Shown here in pieces: positions 2,983-63,345 of a stretch of DNA of 64,000 nt; within the stretch, counting starts at the first letter, position 1; every line of letters begins with the position of its first letter. The translations under genes were made by a program, and so were the position numbers. The DNA lies in the IMG/VR virus record IMGVR_UViG_3300028549_003076, positions 1-64,000 of that record. One strand, given 5' to 3'. The DNA is from a virus. The notes below the pieces were generated by a model. The model did not search any database, was not told the origin of the DNA, and saw only the letters and a list, made by a program, of their open reading frames with translations.

Positions 2983-3693
2983 ATGGAGAATATCATAGAA
3001 AAAATCAAAAAATTAATCAAACATCAACAATCTGCTGAAAAGATAGGTTCATTGAATGAAGCAAATGCTTTTGCATCTAAAATTCAAAAAATGCTTAATG
3101 AATACAATCTATCTATGAAAGATATAACACTTGAAGAACTTGAAGAAAAAATAATACAAGATTTTATGTCTTGTAGAGTTCCGAGTGTTAGTAAAACATT
3201 AGGTTACTTTGTAATGTATCCTATTGCAAAATATAATTATTGTAGAATATATCTTGCTGGTGATAATATGTGTATTGTTGGAACAAAAGAAAACATAGAA
3301 GTTTGTAAATACATTTATGATTTTTGTTTAAATAATTTTGTTAGAATTGGAAAAGATGAATTCAAAAAAGAAAATTTACAAATTGGAGTAGATACTTATT
3401 TGAGAAATTTTCTTCAAGGTGCTGCGACTGGATTAGAATTAAAATTCAAAAATGAAAGAAAATTACAAGAAACAGAAAATCTAATTGAATCAGGAGTTTC
3501 AATGTCTCAAGTAGAAAATTCAACATCATGTCTATCATTAGTCATTCAGAAAAATGATAAAGCAGTTGCAAATTATGTTGAAAATAATATGTCAACTAAA
3601 AAAGGACGCTCAAAATCTATCAAAAAAGATGGTACATTTTTAAAAGGAGTTCAAGCAGGTCAAAACATTAAAATCAATAAAGCAATATCATGA
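2983..3693 (+). CDS. DUF2786-like protein
   Basis: The N-terminus IIEKIKKLIKHQQSAEKIGSLNEANAFASKIQKMLNEYNL matches the pattern I recall for DUF2786 (KI.KLL......NE.EA..A...Aq.L....n). Function unknown. Confidence 0.55.
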   Translation: MENIIEKIKKLIKHQQSAEKIGSLNEANAFASKIQKMLNEYNLSMKDITLEELEEKIIQDFMSCRVPSVSKTLGYFVMYPIAKYNYCRIYLAGDNMCIVGTKENIEVCKYIYDFCLNNFVRIGKDEFKKENLQIGVDTYLRNFLQGAATGLELKFKNERKLQETENLIESGVSMSQVENSTSCLSLVIQKNDKAVANYVENNMSTKKGRSKSIKKDGTFLKGVQAGQNIKINKAIS

Positions 3694-7148: not shown

Positions 7149-7847
7149 ATGGGCAGAAAAAATTATGAACATTTATTACCACCTACAAGTGAAGATATAA
7201 ATGATGAAAATCTAAATTTATTTTTTTCATCAATGTTTGAAAGGCAAGAAATTTGGTACAAAAGATTTATTCTAAAACAACCAAGACCATGGACAAAAGA
7301 TAAAATATTTGAAGGAAAGTTTACAAATGTTTATCGTGAATTAGATAGACATAGTCAATGGCAAATTCAAAACATTTTTTTAGATAAAAGAAATGATAAA
7401 TTGAATTTAGTCTGGAAAATAATGTTATTCAGAATTTTCAATAAACCAGAGTTGTTTGAATTTATTAAAGGAATTTCAGGAGAATTTATACCAGATTATA
7501 AGGATTATGGTATTAATGTATTTGGAAGACTTGTTGAAAATTATAGAAATTCAGGTGAAAATCCATTCACTAATGCTTATTTGATAAACAGTCAAGCATG
7601 TCCAGGAGCAACAAGGGATTGGTGTTATATAAATAAAGTTGTTCCAACAATACATAAAGCAATACCAAGATTATTAGTATTATTTAAACAATCAAAAAAT
7701 CCTGAACAAATCATTGAAAAATTATTAGAACTTCCTTCAGTGGCAAATTTTATTGCTCATGAGTTTTATCAAGATTTTACATACATATCTATTTACACTG
7801 ATTTAGATATTTTCAAATTTGACCAAAATGATTTTACTAATGTTTGA
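7149..7847 (+). CDS. aGPT-Pplase-like DNA base hypermodification enzyme, N-terminal part (ends at in-frame TGA)
   Basis: ERQEIWYKRFILKQPRPWTKDKIFEGKFTNVYRELDRHSQW matches my recollection of the alpha-glutamyl/putrescinyl-thymine pyrophosphorylase family signature (PWT.D.I....F.NvYRE.DR.t.W). Confidence 0.6.
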   Translation: MGRKNYEHLLPPTSEDINDENLNLFFSSMFERQEIWYKRFILKQPRPWTKDKIFEGKFTNVYRELDRHSQWQIQNIFLDKRNDKLNLVWKIMLFRIFNKPELFEFIKGISGEFIPDYKDYGINVFGRLVENYRNSGENPFTNAYLINSQACPGATRDWCYINKVVPTIHKAIPRLLVLFKQSKNPEQIIEKLLELPSVANFIAHEFYQDFTYISIYTDLDIFKFDQNDFTNV

Positions 7848-7871
7848 CCAGGAGTAAAGGAAGGAATAAGA

Positions 7872-8135
7872 ATGATATTTCCAAATTTAGAAACAAATAA
7901 ACAACAAATTAAAGCAATACACTATTTACGTGATATTGCTGAGCAAAAACTATCTGATATTGGTGATTTTAAGTTTGTTAGTTGGTGTAAAAATAATAAT
8001 CAATATAAAGTTACTGATGAATGTAATATCACACTACATCAAATTGAAATGTGGCTTTGTGAATTTCAAAAATATTGGAAGATGAAACATAAAGTAGGTA
8101 AACAAAGAAGTGTGTTTGAACCCAAGACTATTTAA
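7872..8135 (+). CDS. aGPT-Pplase-like enzyme, C-terminal part (same frame as 7149-7847)
   Basis: Same reading frame as the upstream ORF. They are separated only by TGA (7845-7847) plus 8 sense codons. No independent promoter or RBS is evident. Confidence 0.5.
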   Translation: MIFPNLETNKQQIKAIHYLRDIAEQKLSDIGDFKFVSWCKNNNQYKVTDECNITLHQIEMWLCEFQKYWKMKHKVGKQRSVFEPKTI

Positions 8136-23177: not shown

Positions 23178-24698
23178 ATGTCAAAATTCAAATTTTATAC
23201 TCCTTTTGAACTTATTAAAGCCAAAGATAATTCTGGTAACACAGTTATGAAACTTGGCGGAATTGCTTCAACTATTGATGAAGATGCTGATGGGGAATAT
23301 CTTGACCCAGATGGGTTTGATGTTAATGACTTTTTAAAAGTAGGTTTTGTTAATTGGCATCACCAAGCAAAAAATAAACCAAAAACTATTGTAGGTGAAC
23401 CATCAAAAGCAGAAATTCGCAAAGATGGTTTTTATGTAGAAACTACTTTATATCCTTCATCAGATACTGCTAATGAAATTTATGAACTTGCTCAAATTCT
23501 TGAAAAAGATAGTAAAACAAGGAGATTAGGTTACAGTATTGAAGGTGATGTTGTTGAAAGAGGAAGTGATGATAAAACTCATCCTGATTATAAAAAAATC
23601 AAAAAAGCTGTAATTACAGGATTAGCAATTACACATATGCCTAAAAATCCTAAAACTTTTGCTCAAATAATAAAAGGTCATGTTGAAGAAGATGAAGAAG
23701 ACAATGAAGATGATATTGAAAAAACTTTAACAACTGAAAATTCTGGTGGAATAGCAAAAGAGTCATTAAACAAAGAATTGAAAGTTCAAGTCAATAAAGG
23801 TTTTTCAATAGTTGAATTATCAGATGAAAAAATGTATGACAAGATATTTGATACATTTACAGATATAAATATTGAGAAAGCAGAGAAAGTTTTTAAATTA
23901 ATTTCAAAAGTACGTTCAGATATGAAACAAAATGTAAATGAGGATAAACTCAATAAAGCCATGGATGCTTTAGGATTAAGTGTCGATGAAAATAATCCTT
24001 TTTTAATTAAAGGAAAATCATCTGAAGATGATGATGAAAACGATGATAAAGGCAAAAAATATCAAAAAATTGCTGACAAAATTCAAAAAGAAAATTATGA
24101 TGATGAATCAGACAAAGATGATGATTCAGAGTCAGATGAAGATGATTCAAAAGAAGTTAAGAAATCAAAAGATGCTGATAAAATCTTAAAATCACTTGAA
24201 GGAAACAAAGGTTTGTATTTACTTATTGATAAAAAAATTGAAAAAGCAATTTCTCAATCTTCAAAAGAAAATTCAGCACTTGGAGTTTTAACATCTTCAT
24301 TACTTGAAGAAAACAGTTTATTAAAAGGTCATATTGAAAATCAATCTTCAATGCTTGAAAGACAATTTGAAGTAATTAATGAACAAAATGAATTAATTAA
24401 AGGCATTGTTGAAAAAATGGAGAGTTTTGGAAGTACTCCTGCTCCAAGAAAATCAATAGTGAAAGGTTTTTCAGAAAAAGAAAGTTTTTCAAAAGGTGTT
24501 GAAAATACAAATGGAAATGTTTTAAGCATTTCTCAAAACAAACATCAAATTCTTGAAATACTTGACCAAAAAACTTTTGCAAAAGGTTTTGATGAAGAAA
24601 TGTCAAAGGCAACAACAGGTTTTGAATCATCAAATACTTTGCCATCTAATGTAATTCAAAGATTAAGATTAGAAGACAATATAACGATAACTCAGTAA
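23178..24698 (+). CDS. prohead protease fused to scaffold-like acidic coiled-coil region
   Basis: The N-terminal ~170 aa fits HK97-type prohead protease (LGGIASTIDEDADGEYL..., VNWHH, LGYSIEG, ITGLAITHMPKNPKT). The remainder is Asp/Glu/Lys-rich and helical. Sits immediately upstream of the capsid gene. Confidence 0.75.
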   Translation: MSKFKFYTPFELIKAKDNSGNTVMKLGGIASTIDEDADGEYLDPDGFDVNDFLKVGFVNWHHQAKNKPKTIVGEPSKAEIRKDGFYVETTLYPSSDTANEIYELAQILEKDSKTRRLGYSIEGDVVERGSDDKTHPDYKKIKKAVITGLAITHMPKNPKTFAQIIKGHVEEDEEDNEDDIEKTLTTENSGGIAKESLNKELKVQVNKGFSIVELSDEKMYDKIFDTFTDINIEKAEKVFKLISKVRSDMKQNVNEDKLNKAMDALGLSVDENNPFLIKGKSSEDDDENDDKGKKYQKIADKIQKENYDDESDKDDDSESDEDDSKEVKKSKDADKILKSLEGNKGLYLLIDKKIEKAISQSSKENSALGVLTSSLLEENSLLKGHIENQSSMLERQFEVINEQNELIKGIVEKMESFGSTPAPRKSIVKGFSEKESFSKGVENTNGNVLSISQNKHQILEILDQKTFAKGFDEEMSKATTGFESSNTLPSNVIQRLRLEDNITITQ

Positions 24699-54831: not shown

Positions 54832-55914
54832 ATGGCAACAAAGTCAAAAAAATCGGAAAGTGCAAGTTTATCAAAAGAACAAATTGCACAACTTAAACAA
54901 ATTGGAATTACAGGTTGTAAAACTGAAGCTGATTCAAGAGAAAAAATGGTTGAAAAACTTGCTGAGCAAGGTATTGAAGATGAAGGAGAAACTTGGGAGG
55001 AATTACTTGATATTAGTATGACATTATTTGCTGATGAAGTAGATAATGATGAACTTGCTGAAGAAATTGCTGAAGAGGAAACAAAACCTGCTAAAAAATC
55101 TTCAAAGAAACCTGCTCCTGTTGAAGAGGAAGAAGATGGCGATGAAGAAGAAGATGGCGATGAAGAAGAAGATGGCGATGAAGAAGATGGTGACGATGAT
55201 TCAGATGATGATGATGATTCAGATGATGACGATGATGAGGAAGAAGTTGTTGAAACTAAAAAATCTTCAAAGAAATCTTCAAAAGTTGAAGAAACTAAAA
55301 AATCAACATCTAAAAAAGAAGTTGCAAAAGTTGAACCAAAAAAGAAAAAAGAAAAAACTGCATCAGGCAAAAGATTGAATCCGAAGGATAATTCAGATGA
55401 TGCTGCAAAATATGATGTTTTCAAAAATGCAATATCTAAATTAGGAGATTTTGCTTTGAATTATCTTACAAATGGAGGTTTTTCAGTAATCCATAATGGT
55501 GAGAACAGTAAAAAAGTTTTATTATCTTTTGACTCTCCTAAATTAACTGATGATGGAATAATCGGAAGAGTTTATATTCCAACTTTGCGTGATGAAGACA
55601 AACTATCAGAATTGTTTGGTGATGATTTTGAAATCAAAACATCTTGGTCAGGAAATAAATTAGTTACAAATTATCCTTTGTCTAATTTAGTTGAAACTTT
55701 AAAATCAAATGCTGATGAGTTCAAATCAATTCTTGGAGGAATCAAGAAAAAAGATGAGAAGTTAGGAAAAAATCGTGCAAAGATGGAAGAGCAATTAAAA
55801 GAAACCAAAGACAAAAAAGTTGCTGATATAAAATCAAAATCTAAAACAACATCTAAAAAAGAAGTTGAAGAGGAAGTTGAAGTTGTAAAAACAAAATCCA
55901 AAAAGAAAAAATAA
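54832..55914 (+). CDS. highly acidic repeat protein of unknown function
   Basis: 360 aa. Central EEEEDGDEEEDGDEEEDGDEEDGDDDSDDDDDSDDDDDEEE flanked by Lys-rich stretches. Globular-looking C-terminal half. Confidence 0.6.
   Translation: MATKSKKSESASLSKEQIAQLKQIGITGCKTEADSREKMVEKLAEQGIEDEGETWEELLDISMTLFADEVDNDELAEEIAEEETKPAKKSSKKPAPVEEEEDGDEEEDGDEEEDGDEEDGDDDSDDDDDSDDDDDEEEVVETKKSSKKSSKVEETKKSTSKKEVAKVEPKKKKEKTASGKRLNPKDNSDDAAKYDVFKNAISKLGDFALNYLTNGGFSVIHNGENSKKVLLSFDSPKLTDDGIIGRVYIPTLRDEDKLSELFGDDFEIKTSWSGNKLVTNYPLSNLVETLKSNADEFKSILGGIKKKDEKLGKNRAKMEEQLKETKDKKVADIKSKSKTTSKKEVEEEVEVVKTKSKKKK
55126..55246 (+). repeat. coding tandem repeat (18-nt unit gaagaagaagatggcgat x3 plus degenerate copies)
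   Basis: Copies at 55126-55143 (one mismatch), 55144-55161 and 55162-55179, followed by gat-rich degenerate units. Confidence 0.85.
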
Positions 55915-56009: not shown

Positions 56010-57179
56010 ATGAAATATCAAATTGTTAACAATTCAGGTCAAGTTGAAAATTTTTCAAAATTTTATCCATATCTTAATAAATTTTTATTTGAGAATGGAG
56101 ATTTTGTTGAAAGTAGAAATGGTAATACAAAAGAAGTTTTAAATTTCAAAACAGAAGTTTTGAATCCATATAAAAGATGCGTTGGTAATAATGAAAGAAA
56201 TATTAATATTTTCTTTTTACTTGCTGAAGCAATGTGGATTTGGACAGGGAAAAAAGATGTAAAATTTTTAGAAATTTTTAATACTCAAATGAAGGAATAT
56301 TCAGATGATGGTAAAAATTTTCATGCTCCTTATGGTTTTAGAATGAGACATTATGGTGTATCATCATTTGATAACATTAGACCTACAAATGAAGAAAATA
56401 ATCATGCAGTGAGTCAATTAACCACTGGAATAGACCAAATTGAACTATCACTTGAAGAATTAAATAAAAATCCTGAGTCAAGGAGAGTTGTAATTTCAAT
56501 TTGGAATGCTGAATTAGATTTATGTAAAATATCAAAAGATTTACCATGTAATGATTTATTGATGTTGAAAATAAGAAATGGTAAATTACATTCAACAATA
56601 TCAAATAGGAGTAATGATTTACATTGGGGATTACCTACAAATATTTTCCAATTCAGTTTTGTTACAGAAATCATGACAAAAATTCTTGGTATTGAATTAG
56701 GTACTCAAACTCACAATTCACAATCACTACATTTTTATTTAGAAAATCCAATTGCTGATAATATGTATTCAAATATTCAAATTCAGCCAAACTTTACAGA
56801 TTTGTATGATATTTCTGAACCTTTGAAAATTGATATGAACTTTTTTGATTGCTTAACAATTCAACAAAAAATAAAAAAAGTAGATTATTTCATGAATTTA
56901 ATAATAAATTCAATATTGAATGATGAAAAGATTGAAACAATAAAAATAGGTGAATTAAAAAACTTTTCAAGTTATTTGCTTTTTGTTTATCATTTACTTT
57001 GGATTTATAAGGATTATAAGTTTTCTAAAAAAACTGATGTTTTGAGAGCAAAAAATATTCAAGCAATCAAAGAAATTTTTTCAAATGATTTTGGAGGTAC
57101 TGATATTTATACATTAGCACTTAATTTTTTTGCATCAAAGTTAGAAAATAATAATGATAACATAATTGGAAAATTGTAA
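56010..57179 (+). CDS. thymidylate synthase (ThyA) family enzyme, dUMP-type pocket, with ~140-aa C-terminal extension (candidate dUMP hydroxymethylase)
   Basis: NPESRRVVISIWN, catalytic Cys in DLPCNDLLMLK, NRSNDLHWGLPTNIFQF (Asn at the position that is Asp in dCMP hydroxymethylases), SQSLHFYLEN. Confidence 0.7.
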   Translation: MKYQIVNNSGQVENFSKFYPYLNKFLFENGDFVESRNGNTKEVLNFKTEVLNPYKRCVGNNERNINIFFLLAEAMWIWTGKKDVKFLEIFNTQMKEYSDDGKNFHAPYGFRMRHYGVSSFDNIRPTNEENNHAVSQLTTGIDQIELSLEELNKNPESRRVVISIWNAELDLCKISKDLPCNDLLMLKIRNGKLHSTISNRSNDLHWGLPTNIFQFSFVTEIMTKILGIELGTQTHNSQSLHFYLENPIADNMYSNIQIQPNFTDLYDISEPLKIDMNFFDCLTIQQKIKKVDYFMNLIINSILNDEKIETIKIGELKNFSSYLLFVYHLLWIYKDYKFSKKTDVLRAKNIQAIKEIFSNDFGGTDIYTLALNFFASKLENNNDNIIGKL

Positions 57180-58369
57180 TGGGTGATTTGCAAAAATGGA
57201 TTGATAAAAATAATATAATTTGCCAAAATGAAGATGGGTTAATAACTATTGAGAATTTTGGCAAATTCTTATTTATACAAGAAAAAAATGGTAAAATAAT
57301 CAGTGATGATTATTCAATAATTTTAACAGATGATGAGTTTGATTTTATTGAAGAAAATAAAATTGAATTTGTATTATTTAAGTGGGGAACAAGATTTTAT
57401 TATTGTGAAACTTCAAAAAGAAAAAAGAATGAATATAATGAAGAAGTAATAATACCAAAATTTAATAATTTTAGAAATATTGGAAATTATGAATCAAACT
57501 TTAAAGAAATTGATTTTGTAAACCTATCAATACATACAGGATATGAGCTACTTAATGGAAGTGGTGATGCTCAAGATTATGTAAATAAAGCATATTTTTT
57601 TAAACAAAAAAGTTTAGCAATTTCTGAAAAAAATACATTAGCAGGAACTTTATCATTTCAATTATCTTGTGATAAAAAAGGAATAAAATCAATACTTGGA
57701 CAAACAATAACTGTTGCTTATAATTATAATGAAAAAGATGAACATCATGATTTATATGAATTAAAATTATATGTAAAAGATAAAACAGGTTGGCAAAATT
57801 TATTGAGAATATCAAAACAAATAAATGTAGATTTTGCTTCATTCATACCTTTTGATAATTTAAAAAATCATACAAAAGGTTTAATTTGCGTTATTCCTTT
57901 TGATAGTTATTTTAACAAAAATATTGAAAACAAAAAATCAAAAATAGAATTAAAGAAACTTCAAGAACTTTATGATGAATGTTTCTATCAGATTGATTTT
58001 ACAGAATTTAATGATGACTCATTAGATATTGAAAGATTGAATAAAATAAAGTATTATTTTAACAATTATTATAAAAAAATACAACCTGTATATATTGAAG
58101 ATGTTTTTTATGTTGACTCAATAGATAGTGATGTAAAGTCATTATTAAATAAAGTTGATAGGAAAGCAATACCATCATCAAAAAATCAATATTTAAAATC
58201 TATTGATGAAATCATTGAAAAATACTATGATCTATTCAGTGATGAAAATAATAATATATCAAAATTTTTCAAATCAATAAATAATACAAAAAAATATCTG
58301 AACTTTGTAATTTTAGAATTGATACTGGAAATCATAAATTACCAAAATTTGAAGTTGAAGACACTTTGA
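57179..58369 (+). CDS. dnaE: DNA polymerase III alpha (DnaE-type), N-terminal part: novel ~110-aa extension + degenerate PHP domain
   Basis: FVNLSIHTGYELLNG aligns with the DnaE PHP start (FvHLHvHS.YSlLDG) but lacks the HxH histidines. The ORF loses homology after ...NNTKK at the A7 tract. Confidence 0.75.
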   Translation: MGDLQKWIDKNNIICQNEDGLITIENFGKFLFIQEKNGKIISDDYSIILTDDEFDFIEENKIEFVLFKWGTRFYYCETSKRKKNEYNEEVIIPKFNNFRNIGNYESNFKEIDFVNLSIHTGYELLNGSGDAQDYVNKAYFFKQKSLAISEKNTLAGTLSFQLSCDKKGIKSILGQTITVAYNYNEKDEHHDLYELKLYVKDKTGWQNLLRISKQINVDFASFIPFDNLKNHTKGLICVIPFDSYFNKNIENKKSKIELKKLQELYDECFYQIDFTEFNDDSLDIERLNKIKYYFNNYYKKIQPVYIEDVFYVDSIDSDVKSLLNKVDRKAIPSSKNQYLKSIDEIIEKYYDLFSDENNNISKFFKSINNTKKYLNFVILELILEIINYQNLKLKTL

Positions 58370-60747
58370 AACTTTATAGTGAATTAGTTGAGGATGGTTT
58401 CAATAGGAAAGTAAAAAATGAATTCAAAGGTGATAAAGAAAAAATAAAACTTTACAGAGCAAGACTTGATGAAGAGAATGATGTAATTGTAGGTGCAGGA
58501 TTTGTTGATTATTTCTTAATACTTTGGGATATTATCAAATGGGCAAAGGAAAGTGATATATTAGTTGGGCCAGGACGTGGTTCTGTGGGTGGTTGTTTGA
58601 TTGCTTATTTATTAGATATAATAGAGATTGACCCAATCCAATATAATCTTTTATTTGAGCGTTTTTTAAATAAAACAAGGGTGAGTGGTGAAAGAGCAAA
58701 AGCAGCTGATTCACTTCCAGATATTGATATTGACTTTGAAGGAAGTAGAAGACAAGATGTGAAAAGATATATTGAACAAAAATACGGTTTAAATTTTGTT
58801 TGTTCAATTGGGACGTATGCAAGACTGAAAACAAAATCAGCAATAAAAGATTTTGCACGTGTAAAAGGATTAGATTTTCAAAAAGTTAATTTTGCAACAC
58901 GTGAGATACCAGATGATGTAGATTATGATTGGTCAGATTTATTTACAAATGGTTTAAAGAAAAAAGTTTTAAAAGACTTTGTTCAGGAAAATGTTGATAT
59001 TTGTGAAATAATGAAAGCACCACTTGGACAACCACGTTCATCTTCAATACACCCATCAGCAGTAATCATAGTTCCAAAACAAGATGAAGATGGAAATGAA
59101 GTTGAGATTTACGATTGGATGCCAATAAAGAAAATTGATGGACAAATTGTTTCAGAGTGGGAAGGAAAATATATAGACAGAGCAGGTTTTTTGAAGGAAG
59201 ATATTCTTGGTATAGCACAACTTGATAAATTTAGATATATTTTAAATTTAATTCATGAAAATTATAATGAAAAAATAAACTTAAATAAAATTCCTATTTA
59301 TGATGAAAAGGTTTTTGAGTATTTTTCAAATGGTTGGAATGAAGATGTTTTTCAATTTGGAACTTATGGTTTGAAAAGTTATTCAATCAGAGTGAAGCCA
59401 GACAATATTGAAGATTTAATTTCAATGAATGCTTTGTTTCGTCCTGGCCCAATGGATTCAAAAGCACATGATACTTTTGTTGAAATAAGGAGAGGAAAAA
59501 AGAAACCAGAGTTTGATTATGGCTTAAAAGAAGTTACAAAAAACACTATGGGGTTGTATATCTATCAAGAGCAAGTAATGCAAGCAGTACATGTTCTTGG
59601 TAAATTAACATTATCTGAAGCAGATGAATTAAGAACTGCAATCAAAAAATTTGACAAAGTAAAAATGCAATCAGCAATGGAGAAATTTCTTCAAGGTGCT
59701 CAAGATAATGGTTGTTCATTAAAGGAGGCAAATAAAATATGGGACAAATTAAATGCTTTCAGTAGTTATGGTTTTAATAGGTCACACGCTGCTGCATATT
59801 CATTAATGGGTTATTGGAGTCAATGGTTAAAAGTACATTATCCTTTGGAATTTTTTACAGCAAGTTTAAATTTTGCTGATGAAAAAATTGAAATTCCAAA
59901 TAGAATTTCTGAAATAAAGAAAATAAGAAATGGAATAAAAGTTGCTGGTGCTGATATTAATAAGTCAGACATAAGATTTACATCAGACATAAATTTAAAG
60001 AAAATTTATTGGTCACTTACAAAAATAAAATTTGTTGGTGAGGTTGCTGTTAAAGTTATTCTTGAGGAAAGAAAAAATGGAAACTTTTTTTCAATTGAAG
60101 AATTTTACAAAAGGATAAATAAAACAAAAGTTAATAAAAAAACAATGTTGTGTTTAATACTTGCTGGAGCATTTGATGAGGTAGGTAGTGAAAATGTTTC
60201 TATGGAAAATCACAACAAACCAAGAAATAGATACAATTTATTGAAAGCATTTTTTGATTTAAGAAACGAAAAAATTCCTGATGATATTGAGAATGATAAG
60301 TATAAAAACATGAATTGGTTTTGGATAAAAAGACAAAAGGAATTAACAGGTCATGGCGATATTGACTATAAAATTTTAGTTAGAAAAAAATGGCCAAATG
60401 AAAAATTTGCATCAAAAATGTATATTGATGGAGATGATTTTACAAATAAAGTTTTAGAAAAAACTGAATCAAGAAAAGTGATATTAGCAGGAGTAATTTT
60501 TTCTTTAAAAAAGAAAATGTCTAAAAATGGAGAATATGCTTTGATTGAATTACAATGTAATAATTCAATAATAATTGTACATCTTTGGAATGATTATTGG
60601 GACAATAAAAAATTCAAATCAAAGTTATTAGAATTGGAAATAAATAAAAAAATGTTTGCAATATCTGGAGTTATGAAATTTGATAGTTGGAAAAACAAAA
60701 ATGTTTGTTTTGTAGATGATGAAACAAAAATAATAGATTTAATATGA
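58366..60747 (+). CDS. dnaE: DNA polymerase III alpha (DnaE-type), polymerase core and C-terminal domains
   Basis: GFVDYFLILWDIIKWAKESDILVGPGRGSVGGCLIAYLLDIIEIDPIQYNLLFERFLN...LPDIDIDF and FNRSHAAAYS are hallmark DnaE motifs. Homology in this frame already begins at 58294 (ISELCNFRIDTGNHKLPKF), upstream of any start codon. Confidence 0.9.
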   Translation: MKLYSELVEDGFNRKVKNEFKGDKEKIKLYRARLDEENDVIVGAGFVDYFLILWDIIKWAKESDILVGPGRGSVGGCLIAYLLDIIEIDPIQYNLLFERFLNKTRVSGERAKAADSLPDIDIDFEGSRRQDVKRYIEQKYGLNFVCSIGTYARLKTKSAIKDFARVKGLDFQKVNFATREIPDDVDYDWSDLFTNGLKKKVLKDFVQENVDICEIMKAPLGQPRSSSIHPSAVIIVPKQDEDGNEVEIYDWMPIKKIDGQIVSEWEGKYIDRAGFLKEDILGIAQLDKFRYILNLIHENYNEKINLNKIPIYDEKVFEYFSNGWNEDVFQFGTYGLKSYSIRVKPDNIEDLISMNALFRPGPMDSKAHDTFVEIRRGKKKPEFDYGLKEVTKNTMGLYIYQEQVMQAVHVLGKLTLSEADELRTAIKKFDKVKMQSAMEKFLQGAQDNGCSLKEANKIWDKLNAFSSYGFNRSHAAAYSLMGYWSQWLKVHYPLEFFTASLNFADEKIEIPNRISEIKKIRNGIKVAGADINKSDIRFTSDINLKKIYWSLTKIKFVGEVAVKVILEERKNGNFFSIEEFYKRINKTKVNKKTMLCLILAGAFDEVGSENVSMENHNKPRNRYNLLKAFFDLRNEKIPDDIENDKYKNMNWFWIKRQKELTGHGDIDYKILVRKKWPNEKFASKMYIDGDDFTNKVLEKTESRKVILAGVIFSLKKKMSKNGEYALIELQCNNSIIIVHLWNDYWDNKKFKSKLLELEINKKMFAISGVMKFDSWKNKNVCFVDDETKIIDLI

Positions 60748-61340
60748 AAAATTTTTTTAGTGAAATACTTTTTGACCAAGATTTTGACCAATTAAATAAT
60801 ATGGTTAGATGGAATGGTGTTAATAGGATAAAAGATGAAACTGTTGCTCATCATTCATTTATGGTTACTTGGTTTACAAGATTAATAGTTGAAGAAGTAT
60901 TTACAGATAATACTCCAAAACTTATAGCGACAACTTATTCAATATTTCATGATTTTGATGAAATATTTACAGGTGATATTTTACATACATTAAAGTATAA
61001 TGATATAAATGGAGAGCAAATAAAAAATGAATTAGATTTATATTTAAAAAGTAGAATTAACCACAAATTTCCAATCAATACAACCAAAACTAATGATTTA
61101 TTGAATAATACTTTACTAAAAAAAGATATACCAATATACATATCTAAAATAGTGAAAATTTCGGATTGGTTATCAATGCAATTTTATCTTCAAAAGGAAA
61201 TTGATTTAGGTAACAGAAGTGTTATTCCTTTAAGGGAATATTGTATTGAGCAATTAAAAAAATCAATACAAAGTTGTTTAGTTGAATTAGAAAATCAAAA
61301 TGAATATATTGTTAATTTAAAAATCTTTAAAAATGAGTGA
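60744..61340 (+). CDS. HD-domain 5'-deoxynucleotidase (YfbR-like)
   Basis: RWNGVNRIKDETVAHHSFMV ... IFHDFDEIFTGDILHTLKY parallels E. coli YfbR (RW......EnVsEHS..VA...mYHDasEvltGDlPtPvKY). Confidence 0.65.
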   Translation: MKNFFSEILFDQDFDQLNNMVRWNGVNRIKDETVAHHSFMVTWFTRLIVEEVFTDNTPKLIATTYSIFHDFDEIFTGDILHTLKYNDINGEQIKNELDLYLKSRINHKFPINTTKTNDLLNNTLLKKDIPIYISKIVKISDWLSMQFYLQKEIDLGNRSVIPLREYCIEQLKKSIQSCLVELENQNEYIVNLKIFKNE

Positions 61341-62181: not shown

Positions 62182-63345
62182 ATGGCAAAAAAAGTAACGG
62201 ATACAAAATCCAAAAAATCTGATTCAGGAGGCAATTCAAAATTAGATGAATTGCGCAAAAAAATGAAAAAAAATGCACCATCTTTAAAAGCAATAAAAAA
62301 GCAAAATGATGAAGATGATGCAGTTGTAGGTACAAAAGGAAATAGTGAATTTCTTGAATTTGTAGATGGTAAAACTGTAAAATTTAGATTTTTACCACCT
62401 CACAATGATGATATGAAAAATTTCTTTTTATTAAGAAAAAGATATTGGCTACCATTTGAAAAACAAGATGGTTCAATGAGTAGAACAACAGTCCTTGATT
62501 CAATCAGACATGGTGGAACTGAAAAGGATATTTGTGATGAGTTTATCAAACTTGCAAAAAAATTAAACAAGGGTGATGAGAAAAAACTCAAAAAAGTAAC
62601 AGATGCCTATAATAATGGATTAGCAGCAGAACACATGTGGTTGGCTTATGCTATCTCAATTTTAGGTGAGAAACGTGAACTTGGAATTTTACCTTTCAAA
62701 AAAACTGTTCGTGATGAAATTAACAAAATAAATTTTGTTGAAGAAGATGATGAACCAGTTGAAGCAGTAGATACTTTTACAGGTGAGGGTTATCCTTTAT
62801 TGGTTAAATATAACTCAAAACCAAACAAGAAAAAAGGTGAAGAGTATTACACTTGCAATCTTGGTAAAAATGTTGTTGAATTAACAGATGATGAAATTTT
62901 AAAATGGGGTGATGCCAAACCACTTGATGAAATTTATCTTAACTGCTATACAATGTCAGATTTTGAAAGAGCACTTGAAGGATTGAGAATATTCGATGAA
63001 GAAAATGAACTTGGTGTTTTTGATGATGATAGATGGGAGGAAATTGTAGAGGAAGTGAAAGCTCAATATGAAGATAGTGAAGAAGATGATGATGAACCTA
63101 AAAAATCTTCAAAAAAGAAACCATCAAAACCTGCTGCAAAGAAAAAAGTTGAAGAGGAAGACGATGATGACGATGATGACGATGATGACGATGATGACGA
63201 TGATGACGATGATGAATCAGAAGATGACGATGATGACGATGATGAATCAGAAGATGACGATGATGACGATGATGACGATGATGACGATGATGATGCTTTG
63301 AAACGTATCAAAGATAAGTTAAAAAATTCAAAATCAAAAAAGTAA
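62182..63345 (+). CDS. gp32-like single-stranded DNA-binding protein with poly-Asp tail
   Basis: GKTVKFRFLPPHNDD parallels T4 gp32 GQAVIRFLPSKNDE. Basic N-terminus. Extreme acidic C-terminal tract followed by a short basic end. Confidence 0.55.
   Translation: MAKKVTDTKSKKSDSGGNSKLDELRKKMKKNAPSLKAIKKQNDEDDAVVGTKGNSEFLEFVDGKTVKFRFLPPHNDDMKNFFLLRKRYWLPFEKQDGSMSRTTVLDSIRHGGTEKDICDEFIKLAKKLNKGDEKKLKKVTDAYNNGLAAEHMWLAYAISILGEKRELGILPFKKTVRDEINKINFVEEDDEPVEAVDTFTGEGYPLLVKYNSKPNKKKGEEYYTCNLGKNVVELTDDEILKWGDAKPLDEIYLNCYTMSDFERALEGLRIFDEENELGVFDDDRWEEIVEEVKAQYEDSEEDDDEPKKSSKKKPSKPAAKKKVEEEDDDDDDDDDDDDDDDDDDESEDDDDDDDESEDDDDDDDDDDDDDDALKRIKDKLKNSKSKK
63160..63294 (+). repeat. coding microsatellite-like repeat ((gacgatgat)n with two gatgaatcagaagat interruptions)
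   Basis: Directly visible 9-nt periodicity encoding the poly-Asp tail of the SSB-like protein. Confidence 0.85.

Follow-up and report, generated by a model that had tools for sequence, protein, structure and literature searches.

An uncultured phage known from metagenomic assembly carries what appears to be a replicative DNA polymerase gene (dnaE) broken into two overlapping reading frames at a run of seven adenines, which raises the question of whether the polymerase is obtained through programmed recoding, is assembled from two polypeptides, or is encoded by an intact gene from which this one record has lost a base. The stretch of DNA analyzed here, referred to throughout as the window, comprises 64,000 nucleotides (positions 1 to 64,000 of IMG/VR record IMGVR_UViG_3300028549_003076). 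Its source is an uncultured, AT-rich, myovirus-like phage of roughly 86.5 kb, and a sibling contig described below carries genes for an SU10-type capsid, a portal, a tail-tube and baseplate J. The obvious precedent is dnaX of Escherichia coli, in which the tau and gamma products are associated with an A_AAA_AAG heptamer flanked by a Shine-Dalgarno-like element upstream and a stem-loop downstream; the zero frame gives the full-length product, and both the site and its stimulators are conserved. A replicative polymerase dependent on recoding would, if true, be a notable extension of the dnaX paradigm.

The broken gene lies on the + strand. Its first ORF (57179-58369), 396 aa long, contains a PHP domain (PF02811, residues 116-242, E 2e-15), while the second (58366-60747), which opens at a TTG and is shifted by -1 from the first, encodes 793 aa of polymerase core with Pfam matches to DNA_pol3_alpha (E 6.5e-66), the finger domain (E 5.5e-43) and HHH_6 (E 1.8e-20). 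The two ORFs are halves of one DnaE (Pol III alpha), offset by -1 and joinable only at the A7 run at 58288-58294, which reads ACA AAA AAA TAT in the upstream frame. Upstream, the -1 frame is blocked by a TAA at 58282-58284, which marks the 5' boundary of the joinable zone; from 58294 onward this frame encodes ISELCNFRIDTGNHKLPKFEVEDT. Re-reading base 58294 joins both frames into 1189 aa with zero internal stops, of which residues 1-372 come from 57179-58294 and residues 373-1189 from 58294-60747, and the peptide predicted at the junction is NNTKKISELCNFR. The joined chain matches PHP (E 3.4e-16), DNA_pol3_alpha (E 1.6e-65), the finger domain (E 7.6e-43) and HHH_6 (E 3.8e-20), with PHP, Pol III alpha palm, fingers and HHH in the colinear order of a DnaE-type (C-family) polymerase. 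Residues 514-522 (PDIDIDFEG) carry the catalytic aspartate motif PDIDxDF of the palm, with P514, D515, D517, D519 and F520 invariant in an alignment of 20 relatives. If the shift is omitted, the upstream frame runs out of register through 24 codons (YLNFVILELILEIINYQNLKLKTL; 58295-58369) to a TGA at 58367-58369, and the predicted C-terminus of the 396-aa product is ...NYQNLKLKTL. This tail has no counterpart in any of the aligned relatives.

The position of the join is tightly constrained by conservation on both sides of it. In the upstream frame, all of the same 20 relatives share N369 and nearly all share T370; in the -1 frame, K387, L388 and P389 never vary and C377, I381, G384, H386 and K390 hardly do, and there is zero gap between the two groups of conserved residues. 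Since conserved residues flank the A-run without a gap, the join is pinned to a few bases around it. The structures of E. coli alpha (2hnh, 4jom and 5fku) align in a single stretch that spans residue 372 (query 110-1011 against chain 3-900, E about 1e-103). No ATG, GTG or TTG start codon is present in the -1 frame from 58285 up to the TTG at 58366, and separate initiation of the downstream half would therefore cost 24 conserved residues (373-396). A sequence-only reading of this locus had described a PHP region in the first ORF, homology that is lost past the A-run, a -1 frame bounded by the TAA and running into the polymerase core, alignment with E. coli DnaE across the junction, and a perfect heptamer at the A7 as the only joining place; the coordinates, Pfam matches and alignments bear out each of these. 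Its estimate of about 1189 aa for the joined product is exact, and the unshifted reading indeed ends at 396 aa, after 24 sense codons and the TGA.

The decisive evidence comes from two independent, near-identical assemblies of the same phage. The 90%-identity protein cluster that holds the window's 793-aa and 396-aa pieces also includes two continuous 1189-aa proteins. One of them, P0123 (Logan assembly SRR21758069), matches the conceptual -1 join residue for residue over its 1189 aa, with residues 1-372 and 373-1189 of the join equal to the same residues of P0123. The other, P0126, is encoded on the 86,491-bp sibling contig Ga0371475_1017401 (JGI metagenome 3300033564) and shows one difference, F222S. 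Both DNA sequences have TAATAC-A8-TATCTG in place of the window's A7 site. Aligned with the window, they are 99.970% identical over 16,823 nt and 99.963% over 8,033 nt, with one gap each, at the A-run. Across about 61.8 kb, the window and the sibling contig are separated by 24 substitutions and one indel, the latter being the missing A, and only one in 109 A/T runs of at least seven nucleotides in the window differs from the sibling.

More distant relatives also keep the frame. A8 is also present in the Logan contig L003 (SRR9275567; about 98% identity, with 180 mismatches over 11.5 kb), and in L011 (Logan SRR12022141; about 87%) the lysine pair is encoded in ACA AAA AAG, with the N-terminal piece continuous in frame. 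Of the five assemblies with DNA here, three thus have A8 and one A6G, the window alone deviating, and A7 is absent at this site from all the others compared. An 862-residue gene call on ENA contig ERZ22067504 spans the junction at the protein level. Further relatives at 44-63% identity are single proteins in all 119 cases listed (1147-1466 aa), with PHP and polymerase domains. The residue pair at the A-run varies among the 20 aligned relatives (KK, NE, FE, KQ, IE, KI, VE and others). The frame is therefore kept in all relatives and the A-run is not; an uninterrupted gene in relatives of otherwise identical sequence is what the sequence-only reading had set down as incompatible with recoding. 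Among annotated phage records, blastn returned no close relative, only short matches at 67-75% identity, and the best tblastn match, at 36% identity, was to Chryseobacterium phage MA9V-3 and the Cellulophaga phiST group. The closest cultured DnaE homologues belong to phages of Flavobacteriia and Bacteroides (about 33-36% identity). Searches of the viral_contigs and metagenome_contigs collections, neither of which holds this phage, with junction DNA patterns (gapped A5-A10 and a plain 34-mer) gave no match.

The frame break is a single A missing from A8, and it is private to this contig. Putting that A back gives the exact protein of the other assemblies, which makes a recoding mechanism unnecessary. 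The true gene would be a continuous 1189-aa DnaE in which Lys371-Lys372-Ile373 is written ACA AAA AAA ATA, with A8, and the window contig would have dropped one A from this run in sequencing or assembly. The missing A is most likely a consensus error of this kind at a homopolymer; that it is an error rather than a mutation is a step we infer with moderate confidence. The change is private to one contig and the gene is essential. Homopolymer indel errors, together with 'savior' indels in assembled genomes, are reportedly covered in a 2016 review by Atkins et al., and the window resembles such errors in that a one-base change in a run splits an intact conserved gene that is unbroken in near-identical genomes. 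The gene itself is a regular DnaE family member, with a probable consensus error. Taken over all readings, an artefact is moderately favored, a real private mutation is distinctly less probable, and a programmed mechanism of any kind is highly improbable at best.

The same contig carries a second private ORF-breaker. At 7845-7847 it has TGA where the sibling has GGA, and this stop cuts a 328-aa homologue of 5-hmdU DNA kinase (PF18723 HMUDK_hel, E 6e-50 on the sibling protein) to 232 aa. The resulting 232-aa and 87-aa kinase pieces were seen on no contig but the window's own (86,629 bp); the four remaining members of the cluster are full length, 328-340 aa. Two disruptive changes among 25 differences point to consensus quality rather than biology, and some caution is due with the consensus of this contig. 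Two observations pull the other way, however. With a single one of the 109 long A/T runs differing from the sibling, the assembly is not generally prone to homopolymer errors, and the change at 7845 is a G-to-T substitution rather than a homopolymer error. We advise annotating DnaE as a single gene of 1189 aa that probably contains a one-base error. More generally, when a homopolymer frame break is seen in a lone metagenomic contig, near-identical assemblies should be compared before recoding is invoked.

It is possible, though we think it less probable than an error, that the A7 is real, as an unprogrammed replication-slippage mutant (A8 to A7) dominating the sampled population. Phage homopolymers of at least six nucleotides are hypermutable, with a mean indel frequency of about 3e-4 per read over 168 runs in T2 (PMC12633550). 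The agreement of 108 other long A/T runs with the sibling speaks for a real mutation, and the second private knockout at 7845 would fit a truly defective genome. However, reported phage slippage frequencies of about 1e-4 to 1e-3 are far below a majority, and replication genes are depleted in runs of at least six nucleotides, in keeping with selection against frameshifts in these genes (PMC12633550). A broken copy of DnaE, the replicative polymerase, is not a likely consensus for a population. The half of the gene past the break, moreover, is identical to P0123 and so shows no decay, and the A7 recurs in no other assembly.

If the A7 were real, some full-length DnaE could still arise when ribosomes spontaneously slip -1 on A_AAA_AAA or RNA polymerase inserts an extra A, and co-infecting wild-type genomes could complement the defect. 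The product of a -1 slip on A7 is the exact wild-type protein, and one report describes 25-60% -1 frameshifting from C-AAA-AAA alone in over-expressed E. coli constructs (PMC1851650). That the phage lives on a real A7 in this manner, with full-length DnaE supplied by -1 slippage that is efficient though unprogrammed, or by stuttering of RNA polymerase, is very unlikely in our judgment. By extension, the tract might serve as a reversible A8/A7 switch, or as a dnaX-like device from which a free PHP-domain protein is also obtained. The locus resembles a contingency locus in having a run of at least six nucleotides in a phage coding region and a one-base length difference between genomes. A contingency locus would vary reversibly in length within populations and have a selectable phenotype, and the phage loci described are mostly in genes that are non-essential or regulatory (Gomez, Barrick and Waters 2025 preprint, PMC12633550). 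Here, by contrast, the gene is a replicative polymerase, whose essentiality speaks against this reading, and the site shows one length variant among the five assemblies with DNA there.

Programmed recoding, whether by -1 ribosomal frameshifting or by transcriptional slippage, was the headline of the sequence-only reading, which envisaged two products, full-length DnaE and a PHP-only protein of 396 aa, in the manner of dnaX tau and gamma. We consider this extremely unlikely, although the sequence has some of the expected features. In the zero frame of ORF 57179-58369 the run at 58288-58294 reads acA AAA AAA, a perfect A_AAA_AAA heptamer of the X_XXY_YYZ form in the right frame, and the shifted product is a complete colinear DnaE. 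As in dnaX, a lysine-codon slippery heptamer lies in a replisome gene and a shift alters the length of the product. Unlike dnaX, however, the break is found in one contig only, it is unaccompanied by stimulators, and relatives that are 99.96-99.97% identical are in frame. Downstream RNA folds are not more stable than dinucleotide shuffles, with z-scores of +0.55 for 58295-58354 (60 nt) and +0.87 for 58295-58394 (100 nt), and neither is the fold of the surrounding 141 nt (58260-58400), at +1.39. GGA, AGG and GAG are all absent from the 40 nt ending with the A-run; this segment is without any G and hence has no Shine-Dalgarno-like stimulator. Neither the frame break nor the slippery site is conserved among the homologues. 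The same A7 and frame break were looked for in related phages and found in none (A8 in three, A6G in one, and all 119 listed relatives unbroken).

Transcriptional slippage fares no better. Known sites include the A9 of Thermus thermophilus dnaX, the T9 of Shigella mxiE and those of IS elements (Baranov et al., 2005; PMC1088944). Functional sites have runs of about nine or, within IS families, conserved A6G or A7 motifs, and their homologues share the frame break (PMC1088944). The window is like them in having an A-run at the frame junction, where one extra A in the mRNA would restore the full ORF, but its run is an A7, short of the nine or so nucleotides expected of a motif that is not family-conserved, and its break is private to one contig. 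Such runs are also commonplace in this DNA. The window is 26.8% G+C, and its + strand holds 79 A7 and 10 A8 runs, seven of these runs within the DnaE gene; in the coding regions of bacteria, slippage-prone A/T runs typically show signs of counter-selection only at about 9 nt (PMC1088944). With a density of 89 runs on the + strand, the chance of an A-run of at least seven nucleotides inside the 82-nt overlap zone is about 0.11 (P), which makes its presence there unremarkable. The co-location of A-run and frame break is better explained causally, as one-base indels arise at homopolymers. In the wild-type A8 sequence, a -1 slip is followed by AAT ATC TGA, a stop two codons on.

Two observations on the relatives belong beside this. 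In L011, the segment at 3090-3230 (corresponding to window 58286-58296) has acA AAA AAG in frame, the dnaX heptamer, inside a continuous ORF. A -1 slip on either the L011 or the A8 sequence meets a TGA two to three codons past the heptamer, which is expected by chance in DNA so AT-rich. What survives of the sequence-only reading as a whole is its anatomy, its 1189-aa product and the one-base undercall that it had listed as an alternative; recoding as the mechanism, with the Lys-Lys pair not conserved, the stimulators missing and a continuous A8 gene in assemblies 99.96-99.97% identical, does not.

Barely conceivable is an evolved two-subunit polymerase, in which a PHP piece and a core would be translated separately and assemble post-translationally. 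Naturally split DnaE does exist in relatives (Cellulophaga phage phiST gp044/gp045, Tenacibaculum phage Larrie and L011), but these splits lie at window residues about 505/510 and not at 372, and the pieces there open with ATGs of their own and bear tails or leaders foreign to DnaE. In the window, separate translation would lose residues 373-396, among them the invariant K387, L388 and P389, since these lie upstream of the TTG at 58366. Near-identical genomes, moreover, carry the fused gene.

The natural splits were found at L011:2039-6512, at L003:10001-11644 with L012:2-2601, in phiST (L013, 1393-4993) and in Larrie (L014, 1249-4829), and share one recurrent position, at window residues about 505/510 and just before the catalytic PDIDxDF. 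The Cbastvirus phages (phiST and Larrie), which are Flavobacteriia phages at about 35% identity, resemble the window in having a C-family polymerase as two ORFs; unlike the window, which is continuous at 485-530, they are divided at ~505/510, in the palm, with a proper start and stop for each piece. Their halves abut with no endonuclease between them, whereas the metagenomic relatives have a GIY-YIG/NUMOD3 ORF between the halves. In L011 this is a 243-aa ORF between a 548-aa N-piece and a 693-aa C-piece, Seg-like, with a NUMOD3 match above the Pfam cutoff and a GIY-YIG match below it. The N-pieces end in a non-DnaE tail of about 45-50 aa, with a Y-x-(L/V)-x-L-E-(D/N)-G motif common to three of the four sequences, and the C-pieces begin with a leader of about 16 aa that starts MK(V/I). 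Both lineages look related to each other, possibly a sign of a conserved association module. An intein or split intein was considered for the relatives' split and rejected because the pieces have no Hint or intein Pfam hit, their boundaries lack Cys, Ser and Thr, and the tails (~46 and ~16 aa) are not long enough.

The surroundings of the DnaE gene offer some further observations. Directly upstream lies a gene for a 389-aa divergent protein of the thymidylate synthase family (56010-57179; PF00303, E 4e-26), possibly a dUMP hydroxymethylase, and directly downstream is a YfbR-like HD 5'-deoxynucleotidase (60744-61340). Together with the 5-hmdU DNA kinase homologue (7149-8135), these two genes suggest thymidine hypermodification, to judge by family names alone. 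ORF 54832-55914 contains an acidic low-complexity tract with a EEEDGDEEEDGD run and DDDDDSDDDDD repeats, and ORF 62182-63345 ends in a poly-Asp tail of about 60 residues; the Ser-rich ORFs antisense to these two are artefacts of the acidic repeats. Substitutions between the window and its sibling cluster in the acidic stretch of another ORF (23178-24698), where six fall between 24046 and 24180.
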